From: Candidatus Peregrinibacteria bacterium | Lineage (GTDB): Bacteria > Patescibacteriota > Gracilibacteria > Peribacterales > Peribacteraceae | Direction: 5' to 3' | DNA: 36,663 bases | NCBI GenBank assembly: GCA_016866815.1 | Contig: VGKZ01000001.1 | Coordinates: forward strand, 1 to 36,663 | Part shown: piece after piece, positions 4,590 through 36,622 of the stretch | How positions within the stretch are numbered: the stretch's first letter is position 1 | Layout: each line of letters opens with the position of its first letter | Made by a program: the position numbers and the translations under genes | Notes under the pieces: model-generated | What the model saw: only the letters and a program-made list of their open reading frames with translations | Databases searched by the model: none | Told to the model about the DNA's origin: nothing

Positions 4590-4595
4590 TGGTCG

Positions 4596-5195
4596 CTATG
4601 CTGCGTGCTGACGGTTGTGTGCGTTTCCGATCACCTTCATGCACTCCAGCGCCTTCGGGTTCTCCGGATCCAGTTCGATTGCGCGCTCGAACAGAGCTTT
4701 TGCCTTCACGATGTTGCCTGTTTGCAGATACGCGACGCCGAGATCGCAGAGTGTCAGCGGGTTTTCGGTATCGAGGTTCAGTGAACGTTCGAGTGTCACG
4801 ATACCTTGCGCACGTTCCCCCTTGCTGAAGAGCGCCCAACCCAGACAGCGCAGGATTTCTGCATTGTTCGGACGCATGGCGTTTGCTTTACGGAGGAGCT
4901 CCACCGCATCGTTCCAGTCGCGGTCAATGGATTTCAGGAATCCGAGGATGTAATGCCCCGTGTAACTCTCAACATCGATCTCCACCGCCTGTTGCGCGGC
5001 GGCACGTGCTCGCTCATAGCGTTCCAAACTCAATTCATTATCCGCTACTTCCTCCAATGCGGGAACATTCTGCGGATCCTCCATCAACAGTGTCTCCAGA
5101 ATCACCAGAGCCTCTGCATAGCGACCCGAAAGCTTGAGTTGCTCCGCCTCTTCGAGGCGTTCAAGCGTGTCGGAGGAGGTCGTGTCGTCGCTCAT
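4596..5195 (-). CDS. tetratricopeptide (TPR) repeat protein
   Basis: Repeated TPR-like helices are present (YAEALVILETLL, YERARAAAQQAVEID, WNDAVELLRKANAMRPNNAEI, RAQGIVTLERSLNLD, NIVKAKALFERAIELDPENP). I chose ATG 5195 because GGAGG lies 6 nt upstream. The track start is 5246. Confidence 0.8.
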   Translation of the reverse strand: MSDDTTSSDTLERLEEAEQLKLSGRYAEALVILETLLMEDPQNVPALEEVADNELSLERYERARAAAQQAVEIDVESYTGHYILGFLKSIDRDWNDAVELLRKANAMRPNNAEILRCLGWALFSKGERAQGIVTLERSLNLDTENPLTLCDLGVAYLQTGNIVKAKALFERAIELDPENPKALECMKVIGNAHNRQHAA

Positions 5196-5744: not shown

Positions 5745-8700
5745 ATGACGGCCTTTGCTTCGCGTCCCCTTGCGGGAAACTCTTCCGGCCCCCGGATTCG
5801 CCGCTTTCTGCCGCAGTCCTTCAAAAGTCGAGCATCTTCTGTGTTGGGCAGAAGCTCACTGCGCTATCTCTGGAATTCCCGAACACTGGTCAATCGTCGG
5901 CGTTTCATCGGTGGCTCAATTCTGTTTGTCGTCCTCTATGCTGCGTTTCTCTGGCTGACGCTTCCGGACATCACGGATCCGGTGAAATTTCTCGCGTCCC
6001 AGAGCACGGTGATCACCGACAGAAACGGAACGGAATTGTACAGGTTGTTCCAGGAGGAAGACCGTACTTTTGTTCCAGGGGATGCCATTCCGAAACACAT
6101 GAAGCAGGCGACGATTGCCATAGAAGACGAACGGTACTACGAGCGCGGGTGCTTGGATATGCGTGCAATTGCCCGTGTTGTCATTTACCTCGGACAAGCA
6201 GGAGGAGGTTCCACCATTACCCGTCAGCTTGCGCGCAACGCGCTGGATCTGCAGCAGGACAACCGGGTTCACCGCAAAATAAAGGAGTTGATCCTCGGTT
6301 GTCAGCTGGAGAGTCAATACGATAAGGAAAAGCTGCTTGAATTATATTTGAACTGGATTCCCTTTGGCAGGAATGCCTACGGTATTGAACAGGCAAGCAG
6401 AGCATATTTTCAGATCTCTGCGGACAAGCTGTCCCTTGCACAGTCAGCGGTTCTTGCTGCACTGCCGCAGCGACCGTCGTACTTCAGCCCATACGGGAAT
6501 CATGTCCGTACGTCGGTGGACGATGCAGTAGAACAAGACATCATTGCCGGACGTATTGAATCGGCTTCAGAAATCTCCGATGAAGATGTATCCGTAGGCC
6601 TGCTCGGTGCCTATGCAGGCACAGGGTCGCACGTGGTGTACATCGGAGGTCGCGCCGATCAGGTACTCCGCAATATGCAGAATCTCGGATTCATCAAGGA
6701 GGCCGAACGCCTCGCGGCGCTGGAGGAGCTGGAGACCATGGTGTTCCAGCCAGCGCGGGAAAATATTCGTGCTCCGCATTTCGTGCTCCATATTCGTGAC
6801 GAAGTGCAATCCTTGTTTCAAGGCAAGACAGAGGAGGGTCTCTTCGAGCAGGGGGGATTGCACATTCGTACGACGCTCGATTGGGAACTGCAGCAAATCG
6901 CCGAAAAGGTTGTTGCCGATCATCGCCAGGACGTGAAGGACCGTTTTGGAGCGGACAATATTGCTCTCGTTGCCGTTGATCCCGTGACCAATGAGGTTCT
7001 CGCCTACGTCGGTAACATGGACTACGAAGACACCGAGTACGGCGGAAAAATCGATATGGTGACGGTTCCGCGCCAACCGGGCTCCTCCTTCAAGCCCTTC
7101 ATCTATGCAGCAGCGTTCAAAAATGGTCACGGACCTGCAACAGTCCTCTGGGATGTTCCCACCAAAATCGGCGATGATGAGCCACAGAACTTCGACGGTC
7201 GTTTCTGGGGTCCGGTGACGATCCGCAAGGCGCTCGGAGGCTCGCGGAATCTTCCCGCCGTCAAGGCGTACTTCCTCGCCGGTGAAGAGGACCAGATCCT
7301 CGCGCTCGTCAGCGCCATGGGCGCCCCGACACCGCTTGAGCGTAAGCGTACATTGCAAACAGAGAGATCCGAGGGATTCGATTACGGTTGGCCGCTTGCT
7401 CTCGGAGCGGGGGAGACTCCCCTCATCGAGATGGTTTCCGCGTATGGAACTTTTGCCAGGGGAGGCAAAGCCCTTCCGGTCACCGATCTTCTCCTTGTCA
7501 CGGACAACAAAGGTAATCTTCTCTACGAAAAGCCCGAAGAAGAACCCAAAGAAGCACTCGATGAGCGTATTGCGTATCAGATCACGTCGGTTCTCAGTGA
7601 TGAGTCGGCACGACCGCATGAATACTGGAGGACGCAACTCAGTATTCCGGGGTACCAGACAGCTGCGAAGACCGGCACGAGTAACAAGTGTCTGGAGTGG
7701 AGTTCCGAAGTGAAAACGGACCGCTTCTGCAAGCTCCGTAAACCGGACAATGCCTGGGTGGTCGGCTACACGCCGAACCTTGTTGCCGGCGTCTGGGCCG
7801 GCAATGCAGATTCTTCGGCGATGTTCGACAAAGGTGACGGACTCAATACATCCAGTCCTCTCTGGAAGGACTTCATGGTCGCCGCTCACCGGAAACTGCA
7901 GAATCCCAAAATGGAATTTACCATTCCCGCAGGCATCATCCGTCCCCAGATTTCCACGTTGTCGGGTCAGCTGCCGACGGCGTGTACGCCCGTTGCATAC
8001 CGCAAGGCAGACGTATTCTTTGCCGATGCCCCGCCCACGCAGTCGGATCCCGCATGCGCACAGCTCACCGTAGACCGCGTAACCGGACTTTTGGCATCAG
8101 ACGCCTGTCCTCGCGATGCTCTTTCATCCGGAAGCTTCCTTGTGCCGATTGTAGAGCTCTCTGACCGTTTCCCGGAGTGGAAGACGGCTGTAGACGGATG
8201 GATGGAGAAGCAGATGGTGCTCTGGAATGCCGCGCCAGACCACAGTGGATCGCTTCTCCCGCTGCCGCTTGCACCAACGAAAGCATGCGATCCGTCACTG
8301 ACCCCAGGTCGTATGGAAAAGCCTACGGTGGAAATTCTTTCTCCGGATGACGGGGGCACGGCCACCTATCCCGCATTCCATCCTTCCATCCGTTTCTCCG
8401 CCGGATCCTCCGTTCAGGAAGTGCGATACAGCGTCGACGGATATTCGCTTGCGACGGTCACAACAGAGCCGTTCACGCAACCGATCCGCGTACCGAGAAG
8501 CATTGCCGAAACAGGAGGGCATGAGTTCTCTGTCACACTCATTGATCAATACTTTAACTCCGCGACCGACAGTGTGCGTTTCACTTTTCAGGATGATGAA
8601 CGTCCTCCACAGGTTCGGTTCATTCTTCCGACGGGAGACGTCACGCGTCAGCGCGGTTCGGAGCTCCGGATGCGCGCGGAGGCAGTCGACAGGGAAAGCG

Positions 8701-8876: not shown

Positions 8877-8890
8877 GTTTGGATCTGCCC

Positions 8891-9012
8891 TGACAACCTC
8901 TTATCTCGTGATACGGACAGAGCGCTTCGATGTTCCATGTCGTTAGCCCCCTGACAACCTCTTATCTCGTGATACGGACAGAGTGCTTCGATGTTCCATG
9001 TCGTTAGCCCCC
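8891..9012. repeat. 2 x 61-bp direct tandem duplication, 60/61 identical
   Basis: The unit is TGACAACCTCTTATCTCGTGATACGGACAGAG[C/T]GCTTCGATGTTCCATGTCGTTAGCCCCC, at 8891-8951 and 8952-9012. The end of the second unit runs into the 30-bp palindrome. Confidence 0.9.
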
Positions 9013-9032
9013 GAATTAATTCGGGGGCTAAC
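9003..9032. terminator. 30-bp perfect palindrome GTTAGCCCCCGAATTAATTCGGGGGCTAAC between the converging PBP and yebC genes; possible bidirectional terminator hairpin
   Basis: I verified it is a perfect reverse complement of itself. The stem is 13 bp with a TTAA loop. There is no U-tract, so terminator function is uncertain. Confidence 0.4.
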
Positions 9033-9063
9033 ATATGCGATATTTCGAGCATTGATTTGCTCA

Positions 9064-9843
9064 TTATCCCAGCTTTCCCGCCACCACCTCATCGATATCC
9101 GCATTGGTATGCACCTCGGAGACGTCATCCTCTTCCTCCAGCAGCTCGATGATGTGCAGCAGTTTGCGTGCAGTTTCGGTGTCATTGATCCTGGCCTTCT
9201 GCGTGGGCACGTACTGCAATCCTGCGCTGAGGATTTCATAGCCTTTACCTTTCAAAAAATCACGGACGCGTGTCCACTCGGTCATATCCGTGGTAACGGT
9301 CAGAATATCGCCGTCTTCGGCGATGTCCTCTGCACCGAAATCGATCAGCTCAAGTTCCATGTCGTTAGCCCCCGAATTAATTCGGGGGCTAACTTCTTTT
9401 TTGCCGCTACCCTTGGCTGTGACGACGCCTTTCCGCGCGAACATCCACATTACCGATGCGGATTCTGCAAGGTTCCCCCCGTTCTTACTCAGGATGATCT
9501 TTATATTCGTGAGCGTCCTATTTCTATTGTCCGTCAGGCACTCGATGATGATCGCAGAATTGCCGGGACCGTATCCTGCATAGAGTTCCTCCGTCATCAT
9601 ATCGCCCTTCAGTTCCCCCGTACCCTTCTTGATGGCACGTTCGATGTTGGCATTCGGCACACTATCCATTTTGGCATTCTCAATCGCCGTCGCGAGTCTC
9701 GCATTCGTATCCGGGTCGCCGCTGCCGCCCACGCGTGCCGCAATTTCGATGAGCTTGCTGTGACGCGTGAAAATTTTGCCGCGCTTCGCATCCTGCGCGC
9801 CTTTCCGAATGCGGATATTGGCCCATTTGCTGTGTCCTGACAT
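9064..9843 (-). CDS. yebC: YebC/PmpR family DNA-binding transcriptional regulator
   Basis: It starts MSGHSKWANIRIRKGAQDAKRGKIFTRHSKLIEIAAR. Later motifs are YAGYGPGNSAIIIECLTDNRNRT and LEEEDDVSEVHTN. Confidence 0.92.
   Translation of the reverse strand: MSGHSKWANIRIRKGAQDAKRGKIFTRHSKLIEIAARVGGSGDPDTNARLATAIENAKMDSVPNANIERAIKKGTGELKGDMMTEELYAGYGPGNSAIIIECLTDNRNRTLTNIKIILSKNGGNLAESASVMWMFARKGVVTAKGSGKKEVSPRINSGANDMELELIDFGAEDIAEDGDILTVTTDMTEWTRVRDFLKGKGYEILSAGLQYVPTQKARINDTETARKLLHIIELLEEEDDVSEVHTNADIDEVVAGKLG
9364..9393. repeat. second copy of the 30-bp perfect palindrome, inside yebC and in frame (10 codons, VSPRINSGAN)
   Basis: The 40-nt block GTTCCATGTCGTTAGCCCCCGAATTAATTCGGGGGCTAAC is identical at 8993-9032 and 9354-9393. 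Confidence 0.9.
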
Positions 9844-17431: not shown

Positions 17432-18529
17432 ATGAAGAGCATTGTATTGCTATCACCGTATTGGAAAGAAAAACATCGTTGGATGGCCAGCTCTCCCAAA
17501 CTCGCCGAACTCTGGCAGAGGCTGGGGTACCGCGTGATTGCGGTGTGCATGGGTTCGGAGAGCAAAGTCGATCGTGTCAGTGACACACTGACCATTCACT
17601 ACCGCAAAGACTTGTTTCTGAAAGATCCGTGGAACTACGGCATTGCATTTGGATTTGCCGGATATGTGCGCCGTCTCATCCGGAAGGAAAAACCCGATGT
17701 TATCGTGGCCAATAAACTTCTGTTCTGGAGTTCGCTTTGCGTCATCCCGCTCACATTCACTGGTCATAGAGTCCTCGTCCTCACAGATGCACTGGTTGGT
17801 ATGACCTGGTGGCCGCGCGGAAAGATTCCGCAGCTGTGTGCAGCCATCTACGCATGGACGTTCGGGTGGCTGATTCTCCTCTGCGCAGACCGTGTCGTCA
17901 CATTCCATCCGCAGCCGGAGGGGTTGCTGCGAAGGCTCGGTATAGCTAAAAAAACACAGGTAATTCCGACAGGAATTGATGCGGGAGCGTGGGGTGTAGG
18001 GGGTAGGGGGTTGGGCAATACAGTGAATGTGACGTATGTCGGTCGTTTGGAATCCATAAAAGGTGTCGATGATTTTCTGGCGGCCGTGGTGCCGATGAAA
18101 AAATATTGCCCTTCACTCTCGGTGCAGGTCATCGGTTGGTTTGAACCCGGACATCCTCTGGTCACTGAATACGCTCCGGAGGTGAACTTCACCGGTCTGC
18201 GCGATGACATTCCGAAGATTCTTGCGGAGTGTGACATCTTCGTTCTGCCTAGTCACAGCGAAGGGCTCAGCAATGCACTGATGGAGGCTATGGCGAGCGG
18301 GTGCGCATGCATTGCAACGGATGTCGGAGGCAACCGTTTCCTCATTCAGAACGGTGTTTCAGGGTTTCTCTATCCGGCGGGCGATCGTGCTGCACTCGCT
18401 GCGCATGTCCGTCGTCTCATCGAAGATCCGGTGAAGAGAAAAGCAATGGGGGAAGCTGCGCGCAAAAGGATAGAAGAGCAGTTTGATTGGGGTGTTGTAG
18501 GTAAGAAGTACGAAAAACTTTTCGCATGA
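17432..18529 (+). CDS. GT4 family glycosyltransferase
   Basis: The EX7E motif reads LPSHSEGLSNALMEAMASGCACIATDVGG. ATG 17432 (MKSIVLLSPYW) was chosen. Confidence 0.85.
   Translation: MKSIVLLSPYWKEKHRWMASSPKLAELWQRLGYRVIAVCMGSESKVDRVSDTLTIHYRKDLFLKDPWNYGIAFGFAGYVRRLIRKEKPDVIVANKLLFWSSLCVIPLTFTGHRVLVLTDALVGMTWWPRGKIPQLCAAIYAWTFGWLILLCADRVVTFHPQPEGLLRRLGIAKKTQVIPTGIDAGAWGVGGRGLGNTVNVTYVGRLESIKGVDDFLAAVVPMKKYCPSLSVQVIGWFEPGHPLVTEYAPEVNFTGLRDDIPKILAECDIFVLPSHSEGLSNALMEAMASGCACIATDVGGNRFLIQNGVSGFLYPAGDRAALAAHVRRLIEDPVKRKAMGEAARKRIEEQFDWGVVGKKYEKLFA
17989..18016. repeat. G-rich heptamer array GTGGGGT GTAGGGG GTAGGGG GTTGGGC
   Basis: It is read in frame as AWGVGGRGLG in the GT4 interdomain linker. 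It contains four G-runs. Confidence 0.85.
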
Positions 18530-19599
18530 AGAAAAAAGTTGTCATTCTTTCGGCGTTTCTCACACCGTTTCGTAGCGGTGCGGAGGCATGCGCGGAGGAA
18601 GTGCCGCTCATTCTCTCAGAGGAGTATGATTTTGTGATCATCACCTCCCGCATGCGCAGAAGTTTGCCGAAGCGGGACATGTTGCAGGGAAAAATTCCCG
18701 TCATCAGAGTGGGAATCGGCATCGCACGTGTCGATAAATGGTTGTATCCGTTTTTAGCTTCTCTGGAAGCCAGAAAACACAAGCCGGATATTGTTCATGC
18801 GATCCTGGAAACCTTTGCGGGTCTCGGATTATTGCTGTGTAAATTCACTGTGCCCTCAGCAAAAAGGATTCTTACATGCCAGACAACGAACAGAAGTTTC
18901 TTCAAAGGCACCATCGTCCGGTCGGCGGAAACAGTTACTGCGATCAGTAACCATCTTGCTGACATCGTCAGGAAACTTGGAAGAGGCGATGTCGTGATCA
19001 TTCCGAACGGTATTCACGTGAAGCAATTTGCAGAGGCGACGCGAACGTATACGAAGGTTCCGGGGAGAATCCTCTCTGTCGGGCGTTTGGAGAAGATGAA
19101 AGGCGTCGACCTCTTACTCAAGGCATTTGCGAAGCTCAATGACTCTTCCGCGACACTACGCATTGTCGGTAACGGCACGCAGCGTGCAGTGCTGACGGCA
19201 CTGGCGAAGGAACTTGGCATTCACGATCGCACGACGTTTGTCGGCCACGTTCCGCCTGCAGATCTCTACAGAGAATATGCCGAGGCAGATGTCTTTTGCG
19301 GCTTTTCTCGTAGTGAAGCACTGGGGAATGTATTCATTGAAGCCATGGCAGCAGAGTGTGTTGTGTTAGCTTCGGATATTGGAGGAATCAAAGAGATTGT
19401 TCCTCAAGAGAGCAGAATCACATTGGATTCATCGCCGGAGATTGTTGCCAGCAGACTCCAGGAATGTTTTATGAAGGACGAATCCGCTCGGTCAACAATC
19501 CGTCAATCCATGATGCACAATTTCAATTGGTCAGTGATAGCACCGCAGTACGCAGCGCTTTATGACCGTCTCCTCTCCCGCACCAGCGCCGCCGCCTGA
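18526..19599 (+). CDS. GT4 family glycosyltransferase
   Basis: There is an ATGA overlap with the upstream gene. Motifs seen: LSVGRLEKMKGVD and SRSEALGNVFIEAMAAECVVLASDIGG. Confidence 0.85.
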   Translation: MKKKVVILSAFLTPFRSGAEACAEEVPLILSEEYDFVIITSRMRRSLPKRDMLQGKIPVIRVGIGIARVDKWLYPFLASLEARKHKPDIVHAILETFAGLGLLLCKFTVPSAKRILTCQTTNRSFFKGTIVRSAETVTAISNHLADIVRKLGRGDVVIIPNGIHVKQFAEATRTYTKVPGRILSVGRLEKMKGVDLLLKAFAKLNDSSATLRIVGNGTQRAVLTALAKELGIHDRTTFVGHVPPADLYREYAEADVFCGFSRSEALGNVFIEAMAAECVVLASDIGGIKEIVPQESRITLDSSPEIVASRLQECFMKDESARSTIRQSMMHNFNWSVIAPQYAALYDRLLSRTSAAA

Positions 19600-20270
19600 A
19601 ACAAACTCTCAAACGTTCCCGCATCGATCCATTCGTCTTTGAGAATCGTCGCCGTCAGTTCCCCTTTTTCCATGTACCAGTGCGAGACGTCGGTGATTTC
19701 ATACTCCCCGCGCGAGGAAGGCATCAGGTTCCGGATCACATCGAAGCAGCGATGGTCGTACACATAGCAACCCGTCACCGCGAGATCACCTTTTGGCTTC
19801 GTCGGTTTTTCTTCGATCGATGTAATCGTATTGCCCTGCACGACCGCGACGCCAAAGCGTTCAGGGTCGGTGACGTGTTTCAGAAACACATGCGCTCCGC
19901 CTTTGAATCCGGAAATTTCCTTCGAAAGATCATCGAAGTAGACATTGTCCCCGAGAATTGCGCAGACATCGTCGCCATCGACAAATTCCTCCGCGAGACC
20001 GAGTGCCTGTGCTATCCCTCCTGCCTTCTCCTGTACTTTGAAGGAAAAGGTACATCCGAAGCGCTCACCGGAACCGAGAAACTGCGCCACCTGATCGATG
20101 TGTTCCGTTCCGGAGATCACGGCGATATCCGTAATGCCCGCATCAAGCAGGGTTTGAAGAGGGTAGAGGAGCAGTGGTTTGTCGTAGACCGGAAGAAGCG
20201 ATTTGTTCGTAATTTCCGTCAGGGGCCGTAGCCTGCTTCCCGTGCCGCCGCAGATGAGGATGCCTTTCAT
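19560..20270 (-). CDS. rmlA: sugar-1-phosphate nucleotidylyltransferase, short-form glucose-1-phosphate thymidylyltransferase-like
   Basis: Motifs seen: MKGILICGGTGSRLRPLTEITNKSLLPVYDKPLL and ILGDNVY. It is divergently paired with rmlB. Confidence 0.8.
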   Translation of the reverse strand: MKGILICGGTGSRLRPLTEITNKSLLPVYDKPLLLYPLQTLLDAGITDIAVISGTEHIDQVAQFLGSGERFGCTFSFKVQEKAGGIAQALGLAEEFVDGDDVCAILGDNVYFDDLSKEISGFKGGAHVFLKHVTDPERFGVAVVQGNTITSIEEKPTKPKGDLAVTGCYVYDHRCFDVIRNLMPSSRGEYEITDVSHWYMEKGELTATILKDEWIDAGTFESLFQAAALVRERRRS

Positions 20271-20298
20271 GAGCTTCTAGCTTATAGCTTCCCGCTTT
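20271..20298. repeat. heptamer array GAGCTTC TAGCTTA TAGCTTC CCGCTTT (NNAAGCT family, in rmlA sense orientation)
   Basis: Read directly. The minus-sense TAAGCT (20279-20284) lies 8 nt upstream of the rmlA ATG. Confidence 0.8.
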
Positions 20299-20328
20299 TG
20301 GACGAAACCGAATGCTCATGGAATTACT

Positions 20329-20356
20329 ACAAGCTGAAAGCTGAAAGCGATAAGCT
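20329..20356. repeat. heptamer array ACAAGCT GAAAGCT GAAAGCG ATAAGCT
   Basis: Read directly. TAAGCT (20351-20356) lies 8 nt upstream of the rmlB ATG. Confidence 0.8.
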
Positions 20357-20364
20357 GGGCAGGC

Positions 20365-21357
20365 ATGAATCTTCTCATCACTGGTGGGGCAGGCTTTATC
20401 GGGTCGCACTTCACACTGCGGCACTGCAAGGCGAATCCGCGAGATACCGTCGTCGTCCTCGACAAGCTCACGTACGCAGCGGACAAGACTCTCCTCGACC
20501 CTGTCGCTGGAATGATGACCTTCGTAGAGGGGGATATCGCTGATCAGGCTCTGGTCGGCAGGATCGTCGAGGATTTCAAGATCGATACGATCATTAACTT
20601 TGCTGCGGAGTCGCACGTCGATAACTCCATTAACGATGCCACACCCTTTCTACACACAAATGTCATCGGCACGCAGGCACTTCTCGAAGTGGTGAAGACG
20701 CACCCGAAGGTCAGGCTTCTCCATATCTCTACAGATGAAGTGTTCGGAGATATCGATGATGCAATGGCACCATGCAAATCCGGTGATGCGCTCTTCCCGA
20801 GCTCTCCGTACGCAGCGAGCAAAGCTGCCGCGGAAATGCTCGTGATGGCCGCTATGCGTACGTTCCGGATCCACGCCTGCATTACCCGCTGTACCAATAA
20901 CTACGGGCCGCATCAGGCTGCGGAGAAGTTCATTCCTACGGTTATCCGTCACGCGCTGAAAGACGAGAAGATACCCGTGTACGGCGATGGCAGGAACAAA
21001 CGCGACTGGCTCTACGTGACGGATCACTGTGACGCACTGGAGACGATCATCGCGACGCCGTGGGCGTTCTGGGATCCGAAGGTTCCTTCCACCAATCCGC
21101 GTCATGAGCCGGGATCCGGTCACATCTTCCATGTCTCGGCGAACGAGGAGCAGGAGAACATCGCCGTTGCGAAAATGATTCTGGATATTCTGGGCAAGCC
21201 GCACAGCCTCCTTTCCTATGTCGAAGACCGGTTGGGCCATGACTGGCGGTATGCGCTGGATTCGGAGAACACGCGCAAGCTTGGCTGGAAGCCAAAAGTT
21301 TCTTTTGAAGAGGGATTGAAGCAGACGGTGGAGTGGTATCGTGCCAAGCGCGTATGA
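20365..21357 (+). CDS. rfbB: dTDP-glucose 4,6-dehydratase
   Basis: Motifs seen: LLITGGAGFIGSHF, YAASKAAAEMLV (YxxxK), TNNYGPHQAAEKFIPTVI, VYGDGRNKRDWLYVTDHC. Confidence 0.92.
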   Translation: MNLLITGGAGFIGSHFTLRHCKANPRDTVVVLDKLTYAADKTLLDPVAGMMTFVEGDIADQALVGRIVEDFKIDTIINFAAESHVDNSINDATPFLHTNVIGTQALLEVVKTHPKVRLLHISTDEVFGDIDDAMAPCKSGDALFPSSPYAASKAAAEMLVMAAMRTFRIHACITRCTNNYGPHQAAEKFIPTVIRHALKDEKIPVYGDGRNKRDWLYVTDHCDALETIIATPWAFWDPKVPSTNPRHEPGSGHIFHVSANEEQENIAVAKMILDILGKPHSLLSYVEDRLGHDWRYALDSENTRKLGWKPKVSFEEGLKQTVEWYRAKRV

Positions 21358-22460
21358 AGATTGTTCTCGCTACCGGCATCTACCCTCCCGCCATCGGCGG
21401 TCCAGCAACGTATGTCGAAAACCTTGCGCGCGAATTGCATGCAGCCGGGCATGAGGTGACAGTGGTGACGTATGGCAATAGGGGGTTGGGGGTTGGGGGT
21501 AGGGAGCGGAATGTTGTCTCTGTGCCGTTGGGTTTTCCCATTCTTCGTTGGTTTGCTTACGCAAGGGTACTACGCAGAGAAGCCTGCAACGCGGACATCG
21601 TCTATGCATTTTCTTCGGTGAGCTGCGGGATTCCGCTCTGGCTCTCCGGCGTGAGGAAGCCGAAGAGAGTACTACGTCTCGGAGGAGATTTTCTGTGGGA
21701 GAGGTACACGGAAAGAGGAGGGCAGAAGAGTTTGAGGGAGTGGTATGGAGCGAGAGGTTGGTTGTTAGTTATTAGTTATTGGTTATTGCGGCAATACGAT
21801 CACATCGTGTTTTCCACGGAGTTTCAGAAACAAATTTACGAAGAGCATTACAGAATATTGCCAAAACATTCGGTCATCGAGAATGCAATGGAGCCGATAA
21901 GCCAGCAGCAATACACCAGAAACCAAAAACCATATACGCCGTTTCGCTTGCTCTTCATGGGTCGTTTTGTGGGCTTCAAAAACCTCTTCGCGCTCATCGG
22001 AGCGATGACGGAATTGCAGGATTGCGTGCTGACGCTCGTTGGCGAGGGCCCTCTCGATGACGCATTGCGCGATCATGCCGAAGAACTGAATTTACATCAC
22101 AAAGTTCGGTTCGTCGGGCCCGTGCACGGCGAGGAGAAGCGGCAGATTTTCGCCAGGCATGATCTCCTGGTATTGCCGTCGCTCACGGAAATCAGCCCGA
22201 ATACAGCGCTGGAAGCCGCGGCATCGGGATTACCCGTTCTGCTGACGGAGGAACACGGGTTGAGCGAGCAGTTATTGAGCGCAATCGATGTCGCACCTCT
22301 GCAGACTCCGTCGCAGATTGCGGTTGCCGTTCGTGATGTGCGTGAAGCATGTGCCGGCATGCATCATCCGGGATATGCAGAAAGACCATGGAATACCGTC
22401 ATGAAAGAGCATTTGAATTTATTCGCTACGCTGGGTGATTTTTCCCCAAAGCATGCGTAG
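21354..22460 (+). CDS. GT4 family glycosyltransferase
   Basis: There is an ATGA overlap with rfbB. Motifs seen: MKIVLATGIYPPAIGGPATY and LPSLTEISPNTALEAAASGLPVL. Confidence 0.85.
   Translation: MKIVLATGIYPPAIGGPATYVENLARELHAAGHEVTVVTYGNRGLGVGGRERNVVSVPLGFPILRWFAYARVLRREACNADIVYAFSSVSCGIPLWLSGVRKPKRVLRLGGDFLWERYTERGGQKSLREWYGARGWLLVISYWLLRQYDHIVFSTEFQKQIYEEHYRILPKHSVIENAMEPISQQQYTRNQKPYTPFRLLFMGRFVGFKNLFALIGAMTELQDCVLTLVGEGPLDDALRDHAEELNLHHKVRFVGPVHGEEKRQIFARHDLLVLPSLTEISPNTALEAAASGLPVLLTEEHGLSEQLLSAIDVAPLQTPSQIAVAVRDVREACAGMHHPGYAERPWNTVMKEHLNLFATLGDFSPKHA
21477..21504. repeat. G-rich heptamer array AATAGGG GGTTGGG GGTTGGG GGTAGGG
   Basis: It is read in frame as NRGLGVGGRE and contains four G-runs. 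Confidence 0.85.
21758..21785. repeat. heptamer array TTGGTTG TTAGTTA TTAGTTA TTGGTTA
   Basis: It lies in the same GT4 gene and is read as GWLLVISYWLL. Confidence 0.85.
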
Positions 22461-29682: not shown

Positions 29683-30720
29683 ATGTTGCGTGTTTTCACC
29701 ACTGTGCTGCCCGATGTGCCCTATATCCCGTTGCTGTACCCGAATCTAGGCATACAACAGCGCGATTCCATCCTTTTTCTGAATAATGCGTTCGCCGGCA
29801 TGAAGGATAAGATGGTGGAGATCGTGGACCGGGTGGAGGATGCCGATTGCGTTCTCCTCGCACACAACTGGCCTTCACTGAAAGGGCATCGTGGCTTTGT
29901 CCATGCCCAGGCGAAGCTCGCTGCGGATCATCGGAAGCACCTGATCGTGTTCTGGCACGGTGACAGCGATGCCCCCGTCGATATTCCCGGTGCCATCGTC
30001 TTTCGCACATCCCTCTATCGGTACTGTACGCGCGCCAATGAAATCGCCATGCCCGCCTATGGTGAAGATCTTCTCGGTTCAGATACGCTGACACTCCGGG
30101 AGAAGCATGCCGGTCCTCCCGTTGTTGGTTTTTGCGGATGGGCGAAGTACAAAAATACGAAAAACATGTTTGGGACATTGGCACTGAACAGTCTCGTCCG
30201 TTTCGGGTCTGTCATGGGTCCCGAAGGGATGCTTGCGCATCGAAAGGGTTTGAGTTTTCGCAGGGAAGCGATTGCGGTTCTCGGTACTAGTGATGCGGTG
30301 AAGTGTGCTTTCCTCCTCCGATCGAGTTATTCCGGTCACAGCAAGACCATTGGCATGGATCCGGAGAACGCGCGCAGGGAGTACAGAGAAAATCTCCTTG
30401 GCAGCGATCTTGCGCTATGCGTCAAAGGCGACGGAAATTACAGTTATCGCTTCTATGAGGCTCTCAGTCTCGGCCGCATTCCATTACTCATCGATACACA
30501 GTGTGTTCTGCCGCTCGAAGAGACGATCGATTACCGCTCGTTCGTGCTCCGTGTGGATTACCGCGAGCTCGAGAGGCTTCCGGATATCATTGAGCGATGG
30601 TGGAACGAGATCAGACCGGATGAATTCACTGCTATGCAGAAGAAAGCGCGCGAAGCGTACGAGAAGTATCTGCGTGTCGACGCATTTTTGAGGTTTGTCG
30701 TACACCAGCTCGGCAGTTAA
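29683..30720 (+). CDS. exostosin (GT47)-like glycosyltransferase
   Basis: The exostosin-type C-terminal motif is LALCVKGDGNYSYRFYEALSLGRIPLLIDTQCVLPLEETIDYRSFVLRV. ATG 29683 lies 3 nt after the upstream stop. Confidence 0.78.
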   Translation: MLRVFTTVLPDVPYIPLLYPNLGIQQRDSILFLNNAFAGMKDKMVEIVDRVEDADCVLLAHNWPSLKGHRGFVHAQAKLAADHRKHLIVFWHGDSDAPVDIPGAIVFRTSLYRYCTRANEIAMPAYGEDLLGSDTLTLREKHAGPPVVGFCGWAKYKNTKNMFGTLALNSLVRFGSVMGPEGMLAHRKGLSFRREAIAVLGTSDAVKCAFLLRSSYSGHSKTIGMDPENARREYRENLLGSDLALCVKGDGNYSYRFYEALSLGRIPLLIDTQCVLPLEETIDYRSFVLRVDYRELERLPDIIERWWNEIRPDEFTAMQKKAREAYEKYLRVDAFLRFVVHQLGS

Positions 30721-31709
30721 CGCGCTTTCACCTCTACAATTTTTCTGGCGAGATCACTCCCATCTCCCTCTCTACACAGAAACACTTCTCTTCCATCCGT
30801 ACATCGCTCAGTGATGGCGTCATTCTTCGCGGTGATGACGGGAATACCGCAAGCGACGGCGTCGAATACTTTATGCGCGATGACGCGTCGCGCTTTACCC
30901 GAGGTGCCGAAGGTGCCGAGCGCGATATCCGCCGATCGGAGGTATTTCGGGAGCTCAGTGAGTGGCTGGAAGGGGAGTAATGTGACATTTCCCAGCTTCT
31001 TTTGTTCAATGAGTGTCTCGATCATCGGTTTCGTCTGGCCGCCGCCGATGAGCGTGAAGTGAATATCGGGATGTGTTTTTTCAAGCACTTCAGCTGCATG
31101 GACTATATGTTCCACTCCCTGCAGCGGGATGAAACTGCCGATGAAGAGTACATTGAATTTCCCTTTCTGTAAGAGGCTTTCCCGTGGCCCTGGCGTGAAG
31201 AGGTCCTCGCGGGTTCCGACGTACAACACGCGGATGCGTTTCGGGTTCAGGAAGAATCTTCGGACGAAAAATTGCTTGTGTGCTTCCGTATCAATCAGGA
31301 TTTCATCCGCCATATGACAGAGAACGATGTCGGCAAGGTACAGCAGCCATGACACAGGATTGATCCAGGAGAATTTCCTGCGATCGCTGACGAGCGTGTC
31401 ACTCATGGAGACGAATGCATCAAAGATCAGCTTTCTGCGGGGAAATCGGGTCAGAGCCCATGCCAGCGGCATGATGATGAAGCCGGGGAAGGTGACGAGG
31501 ACAACGGGGTGTAGGGGGTAGGGCGTAGGGGGTAGGGTGCGTATTTTTTGAATGAGCTCACGGTATTTGGCGAAAAGACCCTTTGCGATTGTATGACAAT
31601 CAACGATGGTAAAACCTTCGTTTGCGTATGTCTTGCACACGTTCACGTACCGCGGGGATTCATGGCTATGGAAGCCTATGGTGATCAGAGTGCTCTGCAC
31701 GTAGCGCAT
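30717..31709 (-). CDS. GT1/GT4-like glycosyltransferase
   Basis: Motifs seen: FNVLFIGSFIPLQGVEHIV, RVIAHKVFDAVACGIPVITAKND. Confidence 0.78.
   Translation of the reverse strand: MRYVQSTLITIGFHSHESPRYVNVCKTYANEGFTIVDCHTIAKGLFAKYRELIQKIRTLPPTPYPLHPVVLVTFPGFIIMPLAWALTRFPRRKLIFDAFVSMSDTLVSDRRKFSWINPVSWLLYLADIVLCHMADEILIDTEAHKQFFVRRFFLNPKRIRVLYVGTREDLFTPGPRESLLQKGKFNVLFIGSFIPLQGVEHIVHAAEVLEKTHPDIHFTLIGGGQTKPMIETLIEQKKLGNVTLLPFQPLTELPKYLRSADIALGTFGTSGKARRVIAHKVFDAVACGIPVITAKNDAITERCTDGREVFLCREGDGSDLARKIVEVKAR
31504..31538. repeat. G-rich heptamer array ACGGGGT GTAGGGG GTAGGGC GTAGGGG GTAGGGT (+ strand; antisense to the gene)
   Basis: It is translated on the minus strand as TLPPTPYPLHPV. Confidence 0.85.
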
Positions 31710-31733
31710 TGTACGGGAAATACGGAATGCTCT

Positions 31734-31817
31734 GTAAGCTAAAAGCTATAAGCTGTAAGCTAAAAGCTATAAGCTATAAGCTGTAAGCTAAACGCTATAA
31801 GCTGCAAGCTCAAAGCT
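31734..31817. repeat. 12 x NNAAGCT heptamer array with a 21-bp higher-order unit (GTAAGCT AAAAGCT ATAAGCT, two perfect copies then variants)
   Basis: Read directly. It occupies most of the divergent intergenic region 31710-31823. Confidence 0.9.
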
Positions 31818-31823
31818 TTTCCC

Positions 31824-32990
31824 ATGCGCATCGCTTACGTTACCCATACGCGGTTCCCGACGGAGAAGGCCCATGGCCATCAGGTGGCGCAGGTGTGCAG
31901 TGCCCTCGCCGCACTGGGTCACACGGTGACACTTGTCGTGCCGGATGTTCAAACAGGCGTCCGTCAGGATGCTTTTGCCTACTACGGGCTGCCGAAGAAT
32001 TTTTCCATCGAGAAAATCCATGCGTTCGACGCGCTTCATCATCCGTTGGTACCTGGTGCTCTCGCATTTCTCCTCAGTATGCGGTCGTACCGGAAATCAC
32101 TTCGCAATATTCTTTCCAAAAGGCGTTTTGATCTTCTGTACGCGCGGTCTCCGGTCATTCTGCCCACACTCGTTGAATCCGGAATGCCGGTGATCATAGA
32201 GCTGCATACGTTGCCCCGCAGGGGAAAGAGCGGTTTTGTGAAGTGGTGCAACCGCTGCAAGCGCGTGGTGTGCCTGACGACGCCGATGCGCGATGCGCTG
32301 GTCGGTTGGGGAGTCGCGAAGAAGAAAACGATGATCGAAGGTGATGCGGTTGATCTTGCACGCTTTGCAAAGCCTCTTGCGAAGTCTGCAGCAAAGAAAC
32401 ATCATCGGCTTCCTGCCGACAGTGTCGTGGTCGGATACGTCGGTTCACTCGTGACATTCGATCGTTTGCAGAAAGGAGTCGATCTCCTTGTCCGCGCTCT
32501 TGCTCGTATGAAGAAACAACATGTTCCCGTATTCGGTTTCATCGTCGGCGGTCCCGTGAAGTGGAGCGAACGGTACAGGAAGCTGGGGTACAGTCTCGGC
32601 CTCACACATCACGAAGTTCAATTTCATGTGGCGCTTCCCTCCAAACAGGTTCCTTCCGCACTCGCGGCGTGTGACATTCTGGTCTATCCGGCTCCCGCAT
32701 CCAAACATCCGTATTTCCGCCGCGACACATCACCGCTGAAACTCTTTGAGTACATGGCTGCGGGCGTACCCGTTGTTTGCGCCGATATTCCTCCCGTTCG
32801 CGATGTCGTCGATGCCACGATGGTGCGTTTTGCCGAGCCGGGAAGTCTTGCGTCCATAGCGGGGGGTATCAAGCACATACTGGAGAAGCCGAAAGAAGCC
32901 GCTGCGCGCGCGAAGAAGGCAAAAGAGGCGATGAAGGAGTACACCTGGGAGAAGCGGATGAAGCGTATCCTCGCGGGGTTATCGTCCTAG
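31824..32990 (+). CDS. GT4 family glycosyltransferase
   Basis: Motifs seen: MRIAYVTHTRFPTEKAHGHQV, VGYVGSL, SPLKLFEYMAAGVPVVCADIPP. Confidence 0.85.
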   Translation: MRIAYVTHTRFPTEKAHGHQVAQVCSALAALGHTVTLVVPDVQTGVRQDAFAYYGLPKNFSIEKIHAFDALHHPLVPGALAFLLSMRSYRKSLRNILSKRRFDLLYARSPVILPTLVESGMPVIIELHTLPRRGKSGFVKWCNRCKRVVCLTTPMRDALVGWGVAKKKTMIEGDAVDLARFAKPLAKSAAKKHHRLPADSVVVGYVGSLVTFDRLQKGVDLLVRALARMKKQHVPVFGFIVGGPVKWSERYRKLGYSLGLTHHEVQFHVALPSKQVPSALAACDILVYPAPASKHPYFRRDTSPLKLFEYMAAGVPVVCADIPPVRDVVDATMVRFAEPGSLASIAGGIKHILEKPKEAAARAKKAKEAMKEYTWEKRMKRILAGLSS

Positions 32991-33663: not shown

Positions 33664-34740
33664 TCACGGTTTGTTCAAGAAAGGAGCGATATACTCCGCG
33701 GATTTTCGGATACTCTCCGGACTTGGATGCACGGTGTCCCAGGGGAGTGTTTCCACAGTGTTTCCGAACAGATCATACAGATCGATCACGGTGAAACCAT
33801 TCGCTTCTGCTGCCTCCCTCAGGCTCGGCCTGGTTGCGGTATGCATATTGTTGTCCGGCCATATGACGAAGAAACGTCGCTCCGGGAGTATGCGGGAGAA
33901 TGAGCGCAGTATTCTGCCGTACTCTTCCAGGTGTTTCGCATTCACCGTTTCCTGTTCCGCAACGACGGGTGTGCGATCGACCTTCTGTTTCGTTTTGCTC
34001 TGACGGAGATTGATGATTTTCTTCATTGCCTTATACAGTGCACTGTGAGAATTCAACCAGCACTGACGGGGGATGATGCTGAGTATCCCCTCTGTTATCG
34101 GCATGCAGTCGTCCTGTCCCGGTTGCCAGTCATGGGAGCGGAGAATTCCCATCTCATCCAGTTTGCCAGGCAGAAAACCGTCGAGGTCGTTCCAGAAGAA
34201 CACGATTACGACGGCATCCGGATTCATCTCTGCGATTTTGGTTTCATATGCGGCGACTTCCATCGTTAAGGAATAACCAGGGACAGCAGCGTTGATGACG
34301 CTGTGGTCCGGTTGAAGTTGCTCAAGCTGTGCGGCGAGGGTTTCATCGTTATCGACGCCGTAGCCGAAGGTCACTGAGTCACCGAGGAGGACGATGACGG
34401 GCTGTTGGTTGTTGGTTCTTGATTGTTGAGCAGCGTTCAAGCGGAATCCGTGTGCATCGGTACTCACGTGGGCTTTGTAGGCCGGTTCACGATCAAGGTT
34501 TGGTTTGAGCTCGTAGCTGATGCGCGGGTCTTCACTGGTTTGATAGATCTGCGGAGGATTGGGCTGCACAGTCTGGAGTCCGGTGATGCGGAGAGTGCAT
34601 TCCACGCCTGCAATGAACAGAACGACAGAACCGACTACGAGTATGCCGTTGATAAAAAAGGGCCGAATTGTCAAATGACTGGATAGTGAAGTGGTTCGCA
34701 AACGAGTAGCACGATACTGCAAAACCATCCAATCATCCAA
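33664..34740 (-). CDS. SGNH/GDSL hydrolase-family protein (membrane-anchored; candidate glycan O-acetyl esterase or transferase)
   Basis: It has an N-terminal TM helix. Block I is VIVLLGDSVTFGYG, a later block is VVIVFFWNDL, and the C-terminal block is DTVHPS. Confidence 0.8.
   Translation of the reverse strand: MDDWMVLQYRATRLRTTSLSSHLTIRPFFINGILVVGSVVLFIAGVECTLRITGLQTVQPNPPQIYQTSEDPRISYELKPNLDREPAYKAHVSTDAHGFRLNAAQQSRTNNQQPVIVLLGDSVTFGYGVDNDETLAAQLEQLQPDHSVINAAVPGYSLTMEVAAYETKIAEMNPDAVVIVFFWNDLDGFLPGKLDEMGILRSHDWQPGQDDCMPITEGILSIIPRQCWLNSHSALYKAMKKIINLRQSKTKQKVDRTPVVAEQETVNAKHLEEYGRILRSFSRILPERRFFVIWPDNNMHTATRPSLREAAEANGFTVIDLYDLFGNTVETLPWDTVHPSPESIRKSAEYIAPFLNKP
34403..34430. repeat. heptamer array TGTTGGT TGTTGGT TCTTGAT TGTTGAG
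   Basis: It lies inside the SGNH gene and is translated on the minus strand as QQSRTNNQQP, just before the GDS block. Confidence 0.85.
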
Positions 34741-34759: not shown

Positions 34760-36622
34760 CTAATCCAATTCGAATTTTTCCAGGTATTCTTTGCTCTTCA
34801 GGATGCGGTTTTCAGGCATTTTCGTCTTCTCCAATAGGAAACTTCCCATGATGAGGTAATCCATGTGCGTATTCAGGAAACAGTTGAGCGCATCGCGCGG
34901 TGACTCCACGATCGGTTCCCCGCGGACATTGAACGAAGTGTTGATGATAACGGGACAGCCGGTCTGCTCTTCGAATGCTTTGATCAGGTCGTAGTAGAGT
35001 GGATTTTGATCGCGGTTGATGGTCTGGATACGCGCAGACCCGTCGACGTGCGTCACGGCGGGGATCTTGTCGCGTTTGTCCGGGTGAACGTCGGCGACCA
35101 GGAGCATGTACGGACTTTCGCGATCGAGCGCGAACCACTCTGCAGTTTTTTCCTCCAGTACCGTCGGTGCGAACGGGCGGAAGCTCTCGCGGAATTTGAT
35201 TTTCAGATTCACTTTCTGCCAGTTGTCTTTGTTGCGTGCATCGGCAATGATCGAGCGGTTCCCCAGCGAGCGGGGACCGTACTCCATGCGCCCCTGGAAC
35301 CATCCTATGACGTTGGTGCCGGTGAGGAGTTTTGAGCTTTGAGCGATGAGCTGTGAGCGATGAGAGAATTTCGTATAGAGAAGATTTTGTTGTTTGAGGA
35401 ATGTTTCGATTGCATCGTCGGAATAGTCATTACCGAGATAGACGTTTTCCATGCGCGATGTCCCTGAGCCTCCGTATTTTTTGTACCAAATCGACAGTGC
35501 CACGCCGAGCGCGCCTCCTGCATCGCCGGATGCCGGCTGAATCCAGATGTCTCTGAAGAGCCCGGATCGCAGAATCTTGCCGTTAGCGACGCAATTGAGC
35601 GCTACGCCACCCGCAAGGCACAGGTATTCGCTCTTCGTGACGTCCTTCGCATGACGGACGATGCCCATCATCACCTCTTCGGTGATTTCCTGCAGCGAGC
35701 GCGCGACGTCCTTGTGGAATTGTTCCAGCGAAGACTCCTGTTTCCTGCGTGGTTGTCCGAAAAGCCCTTCCATTGCGCCTCCGGTCATCGTCAAGCCGTG
35801 CTCGTAGGAGAAATACTTCATGTTCAGACGGTACGAACCATCCGGTTTGAGTTCGATCAGCTCATGCATTTCCTTCATATACTTCGGTTCTCCGTACGGC
35901 GCGAGACCCATCACTTTGTACTCCGCACTGTTCACTTTGAACCCGAGGTAGTACGTGATGGCGGAGTACAGAAGCCCGAGCGAGTGCGGGTAGTGAATCT
36001 CCTTGAGCAGCGTGACGTCGTTGCCAGTGCCTTTGCCGATGGTCGTTGTGGCCCACTCGCCTACGCCGTCCACCGTCACGACGGCGGCATCGGGAAAACC
36101 GCTGCAGTAAAAGGCGGATGCAGCGTGCGATTCATGGTGCGGAACGTAGAGAATGTCTCCTGCATACTGCAGCTCCTTTCGGATACGATCTGCTATCCAA
36201 AGTTTCTTCGTCATCCATTCCTTCATTGCCGGGAGAAACTGCGTGAGGCCGCGCGGCCACATCTTGATCGCGGTCGGCAGTATCCGGTCGAGGAATTTCA
36301 GGAGAGGTTTTTCGTAGAAGCCGACGCATGCGACATCCCTCATCGTGATTCCGGCGTGCCTTAGAGCCTGTTCAATAGCGTGTACGGGCAGTGATTCATC
36401 CTGCTTTTTCCGCGTGTAGCGTTCCTCCTGCGCTGCGAACAGGATCTCACCATCGCGTAGCAGCACGGCTGCAGCATCGTGGTAGTCGCAGGAGATGCCG
36501 AGAATGTAGACGGGATTGGACGTAGGACGTAGGGCGTAGGGGATAGGGCGTAGGGCTGAGAGGGGCTCTCTCAAAATTGTCGTTCCATGGATTGCGTTGT
36601 CTGCGGCTCGGAGGGAATCCAA
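34760..36622 (-). CDS. carbamoyltransferase (NodU/CmcH family)
   Basis: Motifs seen: ILGISCDYHDAAAVLLRDGEILFAAQEERYTRKK, HHESHAASAF, GWFQGRMEYGPRSLGNRSIIADAR, FRPFAP, INTSFNVRGEPIV. An N-terminal extension of about 40 aa contains a heptamer array. Confidence 0.9.
   Translation of the reverse strand: MDSLRAADNAIHGTTILREPLSALRPIPYALRPTSNPVYILGISCDYHDAAAVLLRDGEILFAAQEERYTRKKQDESLPVHAIEQALRHAGITMRDVACVGFYEKPLLKFLDRILPTAIKMWPRGLTQFLPAMKEWMTKKLWIADRIRKELQYAGDILYVPHHESHAASAFYCSGFPDAAVVTVDGVGEWATTTIGKGTGNDVTLLKEIHYPHSLGLLYSAITYYLGFKVNSAEYKVMGLAPYGEPKYMKEMHELIELKPDGSYRLNMKYFSYEHGLTMTGGAMEGLFGQPRRKQESSLEQFHKDVARSLQEITEEVMMGIVRHAKDVTKSEYLCLAGGVALNCVANGKILRSGLFRDIWIQPASGDAGGALGVALSIWYKKYGGSGTSRMENVYLGNDYSDDAIETFLKQQNLLYTKFSHRSQLIAQSSKLLTGTNVIGWFQGRMEYGPRSLGNRSIIADARNKDNWQKVNLKIKFRESFRPFAPTVLEEKTAEWFALDRESPYMLLVADVHPDKRDKIPAVTHVDGSARIQTINRDQNPLYYDLIKAFEEQTGCPVIINTSFNVRGEPIVESPRDALNCFLNTHMDYLIMGSFLLEKTKMPENRILKSKEYLEKFELD
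35331..35365. repeat. heptamer array TTTGAGC TTTGAGC GATGAGC TGTGAGC GATGAGA
   Basis: It lies inside the carbamoyltransferase gene and is translated on the minus strand as SHRSQLIAQSSKL. Confidence 0.85.
36515..36563. repeat. G-rich heptamer array ATTGGAC GTAGGAC GTAGGGC GTAGGGG ATAGGGC GTAGGGC TGAGAGG
   Basis: Seven units on the + strand, translated on the minus strand as PLSALRPIPYALRPTSN. It lies immediately upstream of the conserved YILGIS core. Confidence 0.85.

Follow-up and report, generated by a model that had tools for sequence, protein, structure and literature searches.

The DNA analysed here is a 36,663-nucleotide stretch (the window) from Candidatus Peregrinibacteria bacterium (GTDB lineage Bacteria; Patescibacteriota; Gracilibacteria; Peribacterales; Peribacteraceae), comprising positions 1 to 36,663 of the forward strand of contig VGKZ01000001.1 (GenBank assembly GCA_016866815.1). 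Within its glycan gene island, two divergently transcribed glycosyltransferase genes, both GT4-type by Pfam, are separated by a gap of 114 bp (between ORFs 30717–31709 on the minus strand and 31824–32990 on the plus strand), of which 84 bp consist of twelve NNAAGCT units lying head to tail (Table 1). An earlier note on this DNA had described such an array as filling the space between divergent promoters in a glycan island, and direct reading agreed with it unit by unit, as well as in the share of the gap that the array takes up and in its end 6 nt before ATG 31824. The units run as [GTAAGCT AAAAGCT ATAAGCT] twice, an extra ATAAGCT, [GTAAGCT AAACGCT ATAAGCT], and finally GCAAGCT CAAAGCT, after which only TTTCCC stands between the array and the ATG. 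All 12 units are oriented toward the plus-strand gene, which has no Shine–Dalgarno sequence.

Table 1 Features of the array locus and of the rmlA/rmlB promoter region
Feature	Position	Strand	Basis or remark
12-unit NNAAGCT array	31734–31817	+	Sequence, Tandem Repeats Finder, shuffles; identical in six metagenome assemblies
Terminal hexamer AAAGCT, candidate −10	31812–31817	+	6 nt before ATG 31824
TAAGCT nearest the gene (unit 10), alternative −10	31798–31803	+	Leader of ~14 nt; hexamer used before rmlA, rmlB and GT orthologues
GT4 glycosyltransferase gene, 388 aa, downstream of array	31824–32990	+	Pfam Glycos_transf_1, Glyco_transf_4
Divergent GT4-type glycosyltransferase gene, called 330 aa	30717–31709	−	Pfam; GTG 31700 probable start
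TACAAT, putative −10 of divergent gene	31708–31713	−	7 nt before GTG 31700–31698; outside array
4-unit array AAGCTGA AAGCTGA AAGCGAT AAGCT	20331–20356	+	Ends TAAGCT-N8-ATG of rmlB-like gene
4-unit array AAGCGGG AAGCTAT AAGCTAG AAGCT	20272–20297	−	Ends TAAGCT-N8-ATG of rmlA-like gene
RmlA-like nucleotidyltransferase gene	19560–20270	−	Pfam NTP_transferase, E 1.7e-49
RmlB-like NDP-sugar 4,6-dehydratase gene, first of plus-strand GT operon	20365–21357	+	Pfam GDP_Man_Dehyd, Epimerase

The array lies far outside chance expectation. A three-unit pattern with up to two mismatches matched 15 times in the window versus 0.05 times expected in shuffles, and the array was the sole place in the window with a self-match of at least 24/28 at lags of 5–12. 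Tandem Repeats Finder reported it at periods of 7 (9.9 copies, score 96), 21 (4.0 copies, score 103) and 28 (2.9 copies, score 122). Units 1–3 are repeated exactly, as a 21-bp duplication, in units 4–6, and the extra ATAAGCT that follows unit 6 then shifts the phase, so that the 21-bp super-period described in the earlier note is real but non-uniform: it is exact through unit 6, and across the whole array the 28-bp period scores at least as high. The accompanying idea that recurring hexamers share one face of the helix is arithmetically sound but applies only to every third unit. With 7-nt units arranged head to tail over a length beyond chance—the two properties that define a heptanucleotide LSSR—the 12-unit tract is a heptanucleotide SSR at a gene start. 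AAGCT as a generally over-represented word was ruled out by the window count, because outside the arrays AAGCT occurs at or below expectation. A structured RNA or DNA element was likewise rejected, as the array folds no better than shuffled sequence (z = −0.67 as RNA, −0.16 as DNA), and an Rfam search of the window left the array unmatched, its only match being a tRNA elsewhere. A scan for E. coli-type −35/−10 promoters and for terminators across 31400–32100 returned nothing, and the array units match a −35 element poorly.

Both flanking genes have starts that can be placed against their orthologues. The N terminus of the GT4 protein encoded from 31824, MRIAYVTHTRFPTEKAHGHQ, aligns with the orthologue starts, and an N-terminal extension through the array was rejected because the GT frame meets a TAA stop inside it. 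The divergent GT4 gene probably starts at GTG 31700 rather than at ATG 31709: its upstream sequence reads TACAAT-GCGCTAC-GTG, the GTG opens a frame of 327 aa, and its orthologues are 323–328 aa long with TAnnnT 6–8 nt before their starts. This TACAAT-N7-GTG arrangement, together with the lengths and TAnnnT spacing of the orthologues, puts the putative −10 of the divergent gene outside the array; only the −35 region of that gene touches the first unit. Service of both divergent promoters by the array, as the earlier note had envisaged in one of its options, finds no support, since every unit faces the plus-strand gene and the minus-strand gene has a −10 candidate of its own.

Further AAGCT clusters in the window occur only in the 94-bp divergent gap between the rmlA-like and rmlB-like genes (20271–20364), which holds two inverted 4-unit arrays, each aimed at its own gene. 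We extended the genome sequence to 53.7 kb with contigs of the same strain and found arrays of three or more units at only three promoters—those of rmlA, rmlB and the GT4 gene—all in the glycan island. Heptamer-periodic tracts of other composition (GGGGGTA-like, TTGGTTA, TGTTGGT and GAGCT-type) were seen within ORFs of the island at 17992–18015, 21481–21504, 21758–21788, 31507–31537, 34403–34428, 35327–35364 and 36512–36556, where the encoded peptides are short and unusual (for example, WGVGGRGLG, TLPPTPYPLHP and ALRPIPYALRP). Elsewhere in the window, a 61-bp unit stands in two tandem copies of 98% identity at 8888–9012, between a PBP1 gene ending at 8876 and a convergent YebC-like gene (9064–9843, minus strand); for the latter interval, gene calls favour the minus-strand YebC/TACO1-family ORF over an overlapping plus-strand ORF (8983–9840). 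Past the window end and downstream of the island, contig L288 carries a PCRF plus RF-1 ORF of 271 aa with a GTG start (4208–5023), perhaps the body of a prfB that carries a frameshift, and an RF-1-domain ORF of 136 aa with an ArfB-like look (7948–8358).

The position of the array relative to the GT4 start coincides with a lineage-wide signal. In pooled Peribacteria sequence totalling about 400 kb (loci L127–L161 together with the window), with 744 long ORFs taken from their first ATG or GTG, TAnnnT ended 6, 7 or 8 nt before the start in 62, 23 and 21 ORFs, respectively, against a background of mostly 3–10 ORFs at other offsets, making 6 nt the modal distance. The commonest hexamers at these positions were TACACT, TATACT, TATCCT, TAAGCT, TATCAT and TACAAT, giving a TAnnCT-like consensus to which TAAGCT conforms, and the pooled sequences had a weak TTG signal 17 nt upstream of the hexamer. 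About 15 of the 47 genes in the 53.7 kb of this genome show the TAnnnT pattern, and most lack a Shine–Dalgarno sequence. TAnnnT fixed 6–8 nt before starts is the signature of leaderless mRNAs, and on these sequence grounds Peribacteria appear to use such mRNAs widely. TAAGCT itself stands 6–8 nt before the starts of rmlA, rmlB and orthologous GT genes, a placement that supports its behaving as a −10-type hexamer. At the GT4 gene, the terminal hexamer AAAGCT keeps A at −11 and T at −7 and has A in place of T at −12; a perfect TAAGCT occurs no closer to the ATG than 20 nt.

Orthologous promoters provide a length series for the array. The GT4 protein matches proteins of Candidatus Peribacter, Peribacteria and Peregrinibacteria MAGs at 45–59% identity, which marks the organism as a member of the CPR, and six relatives have arrays of 2–4 units: in L128, L129, L141 and L327, four NNAAGCT units precede the orthologous GT gene and end in TAAGCT-N6/8-ATG, and L133 and L135 retain a decayed form of the same arrangement. 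Four others (L127, L130, L131 and L156) have no array, only a 16-nt gap with two back-to-back −10 boxes. Across 356 kb of other Peribacteria loci, arrays of at least three units were found only before the orthologous GT gene, and the multi-unit structure persists between orthologues that share just 51–59% protein identity. In seven orthologous or paralogous promoters, the distance from array end to start is 6–8 nt. Array length between lineages is therefore 0, 2–4 or 12 units and, because relatives carry either 2–4 units or array-free 16-nt promoters, we read the 12-unit array from these comparisons as a lineage-specific expansion of a short repeat-bearing promoter.

Within the population, array length appeared constant. 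Contigs 99.99–100% identical to this genome were recovered from several lake-water metagenomes, and across six assemblies made independently from different samples, a 131-bp region with all 12 units showed no difference. No repeat-number polymorphism was found among these six assemblies, and Logan contigs had the 12-unit form with no indel or joint, comparisons that cover assembled contigs and could miss rare variants. Some assemblies break within the array (L006; runs X3 and X4). In runs X1–X4, the array (31738–31789) drew in a very large excess of other short contigs with similar arrays, at word depths of thousands to tens of thousands compared with about 8x for the genome itself, so similar arrays must be highly abundant among other members of the lake community. 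Contigs of 1.7–7 kb at a depth similar to that of the genome carry a 52-nt near-copy, which may represent another locus of the genome or of a sister strain.

AAGCT arrays are not confined to Peribacteria. AAGCTNN repeated four times occurs at more than 120 loci in GTDB genomes of many phyla, and the exact mixed 20-mer TAAGCTAAAAGCTATAAGCT at 84 GTDB loci, where base counts predict about one; of the 80 loci listed for it, at least 52 carry a CPR label, and it was also present in at least 118 metagenome contigs. Among 182 distinct listed loci with the exact 20-mer, a CPR-dominated set, 48 arrays are aimed at a start codon, of which 25 end 5–9 nt before it and 11 exactly 6 nt before it, the modal distance; the 19 starts on the opposite side of arrays show a flat spread of distances. 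Arrays in other CPR precede genes for FtsZ, EF-Tu, S3, L10, RuvC, MutM, UvrD and DnaJ, and in another genome (L350) an array precedes an RmlA gene. GAAAGCT-N6-ATG, which resembles the terminal unit studied here, occurs at two further CPR loci (L200 and L305). Arrays also precede tRNA genes, ending 7–12 nt before the mature 5′ ends (L180, L302, L272/L371 and L257), so the corresponding precursors would be nearly without a 5′ leader; this proximity to tRNAs favours a transcriptional over a translational role. The general leaderless signal was only weak in non-Peribacteria CPR. As a control, a 20-mer with a scrambled core (TAGACT...) matched 21 GTDB loci, three of them labelled CPR, versus about one expected, indicating that mixed heptamer arrays are a general SSR class that is not unique to AAGCT; arrays of the AAGCT type outnumber this control about fourfold and are centred on CPR.

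Many copies lie inside genes. At 60 of the 182 listed loci, the array is in frame within a long ORF, and all 60 are in the sense orientation, none antisense, encoding (S)YKLKAIS(Y)(KL). Pfam identified intact LepA, KsgA, Fmt, TsaD, enolase, Pth, Mur ligases, class I aminoacyl-tRNA synthetase and UvrC around in-frame arrays (loci including L216, L262, L241, L185, L188, L313, L266, L283, L360, L357 and L169, among L167–L374), and the copies sit in loop regions, with flanking DNA that is highly diverged between loci. AAAAGCT is the variant that abolishes the in-frame TAA, which may explain the mixed-unit pattern; units 1–7 of the window array likewise keep the YKLKAIS frame open (KLKAISCKLKAISYKL). 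The sense-only bias might arise because promoters in the antisense direction are selected against, or because the hydrophilic sense peptide is tolerated better than the hydrophobic antisense LIAFSL. A Saccharibacteria 23S rRNA gene (L294, 3160–3240) contains an inverted pair of AAGCT heptamer arrays which, with other heptamer-like inverted repeats nearby, forms an apparent expansion hairpin in domain I. A search of RNA runs found none containing the window or a Hainich CPR locus, and RNA runs matched through a Saccharibacteria 23S fragment had only conserved rRNA words in common with it.

We lean, by a modest degree, towards a leaderless GT4 promoter whose −10 element is the 3′ end of the array, with the remaining units as an expansion by slippage in 21-bp and 7-bp steps. 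According to this model, many first genes of Peribacteria operons would carry a TAnnCT-type −10 box ending 6–8 nt before the start, with TAAGCT as one accepted version, and their mRNAs would begin at or next to the ATG, so that no Shine–Dalgarno sequence would be needed. The ancestral promoter of the GT4 gene at 31824 may have been short, with the roughly four NNAAGCT units that relatives still carry, and would have grown from four units to twelve by replication slippage or unequal recombination; the exact 21-bp duplication and the single additional 7-bp unit fit growth by slippage. Initiation would most likely be directed by the last unit, which occupies the −10 position and ends 6 nt upstream of the ATG, and the upstream units would be extra −10-like, A+T-rich copies that either attract RNA polymerase or are tolerated as filler. 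The expansion would also have moved the divergent TACAAT-N7-GTG promoter about 70 bp further off. The repeat itself, its orientation and spacing, its conservation at this gene and the lineage-wide −10-to-start signal are seen directly in the sequences; the GT4 transcription start site, the use of AAAGCT as its −10 and any effect of the extra units are what we infer from them. Of the three options raised in the earlier note, a battery of −10 elements fares best, given TAAGCT at 6–8 nt before rmlA, rmlB and the GT orthologues, although the terminal unit here is AAAGCT. Several observations count against the −10 reading: the unit at the −10 position lacks T at −12, the E. coli-type scan was empty and the −35 match is poor; the leaderless signal is weak in CPR outside Peribacteria, and arrays occur inside ORFs and a 23S rRNA, places with no obvious need for a promoter; and the restriction to three glycan promoters in this genome would also fit a specific operator. 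A broader version is tentative, and we regard it as possible rather than probable: across the CPR, NNAAGCT arrays may form a promoter module capable of self-expansion, in which each unit is a −10 box for the main sigma factor, growing in 7-bp and 21-bp steps and recruited as promoters for leaderless mRNAs and near-leaderless tRNAs. The same process would write copies into ORFs and rRNA, where AAAAGCT keeps one frame open (YKLKAISYKL) and only the sense orientation survives, and in this genome it would link the three glycan operons into one expression class.

The array could instead be an operator, a row of transcription-factor sites co-regulating rmlA, the rmlB–GT operon and the 388-aa GT4 gene in the manner of the ToxR/ToxT TTTTGAT heptads. 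We consider this unlikely. The confinement of arrays of at least three units to three glycan promoters in 53.7 kb and to the orthologous GT gene in the 356 kb of other Peribacteria loci, the array before RmlA in L350 and the retention of several units at 51–59% protein identity would all suit such an operator; the same arrays, however, precede unrelated housekeeping genes and tRNAs in other CPR and lie within ORFs, no candidate regulator was found near arrays, and a 7-bp spacing would rotate successive sites by 240 degrees, which would be unusual for dimeric regulators. Retention of the element at the same gene across deep divergence is difficult to reconcile with neutrality, under which the array would merely reflect a tendency of the genome to form 7-bp repeats, incidentally close to a start codon and without a role in expression. 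In prokaryotes, long SSRs most often have heptamer units (Mrazek 2007, as relayed in PMC4679880), other heptamer tracts exist in the window, several of them within ORFs, and even the scrambled-core 20-mer had 21 GTDB matches versus about one expected; against these stand the fixed 6–8-nt distance in seven promoters, the 6-nt peak across CPR and the orientation biased toward the gene, and we judge neutrality quite unlikely.

An RNA element in a 5′ UTR that stands in for a Shine–Dalgarno sequence by recruiting either the ribosome or an RNA-binding protein, as modelled for TAACTGA in Beggiatoaceae, would account for a forward array directly before a start that has no Shine–Dalgarno sequence and for the 60-to-0 sense bias of CPR coding copies, and the layout agrees with that described in PMC4679880. 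We nonetheless find it very unlikely, as tRNA genes, which are untranslated, have arrays just as close upstream, the same position is taken lineage-wide by unrelated TAnnnT hexamers, and the array neither folds better than shuffles (by either z score) nor matches Rfam. We give least credence, regarding it as highly improbable, to a contingency locus in which slipped-strand gain or loss of units would switch or grade surface-glycan expression, as at hmw1A/hmw2A. A cell-surface glycan gene with an SSR in its promoter invites that comparison, a perfect 42-bp (2 × 21) repeat could misalign, assemblies break inside the array (L006; X3 and X4) and unit number differs between lineages (0, 2–4 or 12); but the same 12 units recur in six assemblies with no indel or joint seen in the assembled contigs, the units are heterogeneous, and unit number would leave the −10-to-start distance and the promoter of the neighbour intact. 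The spacer-length switch of the earlier note founders on the same points: the edges of a periodic array are unchanged by inner gain or loss, so the −35, −10 and start spacing would stay constant, and the six assemblies carry identical 12-unit tracts.

To our knowledge, almost nothing has been established experimentally about how transcription and translation start in CPR/Patescibacteria, nearly all of which are uncultured. The patterns described here offer a concrete promoter model for Peribacteria, in which a putative TAnnCT −10 box 6–8 nt before the start gives rise to leaderless mRNAs, and a natural series of 0, 4 and 12 reiterated candidate −10 units before one orthologous gene. A third element is an AAGCT repeat family found in many CPR classes, both upstream of genes and tRNAs and, oddly, within essential genes in frame. 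Were the arrays active promoters, they would aid the annotation of gene starts and operons in CPR and would exemplify the creation of regulatory DNA by SSRs; if they are only slippage products, they would be an ordinary SSR. In the literature, we found no description of AAGCT arrays or CPR heptamer repeats, of in-frame YKLKAIS copies, or of leaderless promoters in Peribacteria.

Heptamer repeats as such are familiar. Among long prokaryotic SSRs, heptamer units are reported to be the most frequent (Mrazek, Guo & Shah 2007, as cited in PMC4679880 and PMC4692102), and the AAGCT array resembles the prokaryotic heptanucleotide LSSR, including cyanobacterial STRR heptamers, as these two sources describe them: 7-nt units lying head to tail, mostly intergenic, beyond chance and in scattered taxa. 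Unlike them, it has mixed units (GT, AA or AT plus AAGCT), a fixed orientation and a fixed distance of 6–8 nt from the start, is concentrated in CPR and has a core that matches the −10 box of its lineage. The GGGNATC repeats of Xanthomonas and Nostoc (Rehm 2015, PMC4692102) are similarly abundant genome-wide heptamer SSRs near gene ends, but they form G-quadruplexes and avoid divergent intergenic regions, whereas the AAGCT array is free of G-tracts and of any special fold. Heptamers also occur in surface and virulence promoters, as in the 7-bp repeats of H. influenzae hmw1A/hmw2A (PMC8262952) and the TTTTGAT heptads within the V. cholerae ctxAB promoter (bioRxiv 10.1101/2021.05.14.444153), with copy numbers that vary from strain to strain. 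In those systems, polymorphic copy number alters expression or the repeats are defined ToxR, ToxT and H-NS sites; here we found neither polymorphism nor a binding protein.

The closest described case is that of the TAACTGA direct repeats before starts in marine Beggiatoaceae, cyanobacteria and Bacteroidetes (MacGregor 2015, PMC4679880), for which a post-transcriptional or translational role was proposed. Both systems place forward heptamers a few nucleotides before starts where Shine–Dalgarno sequences are rare, with occasional copies in ORFs. The unit here is NNAAGCT and the taxa are others; copies close to tRNAs, together with the lineage-wide −10 signal, speak for a promoter role. The Peribacteria signal, TAnnnT 6–8 nt before ATG or GTG without a Shine–Dalgarno sequence, is akin to leaderless promoters with a −10 box immediately upstream of the start, such as those of Mycobacterium tuberculosis (Cortes 2013, as cited in PMC12641261); the terminal hexamer of the 12-unit array is the variant AAAGCT. 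What sets the Peribacteria arrays apart is that the putative −10 unit forms a tandem repeat of as many as 12 copies.
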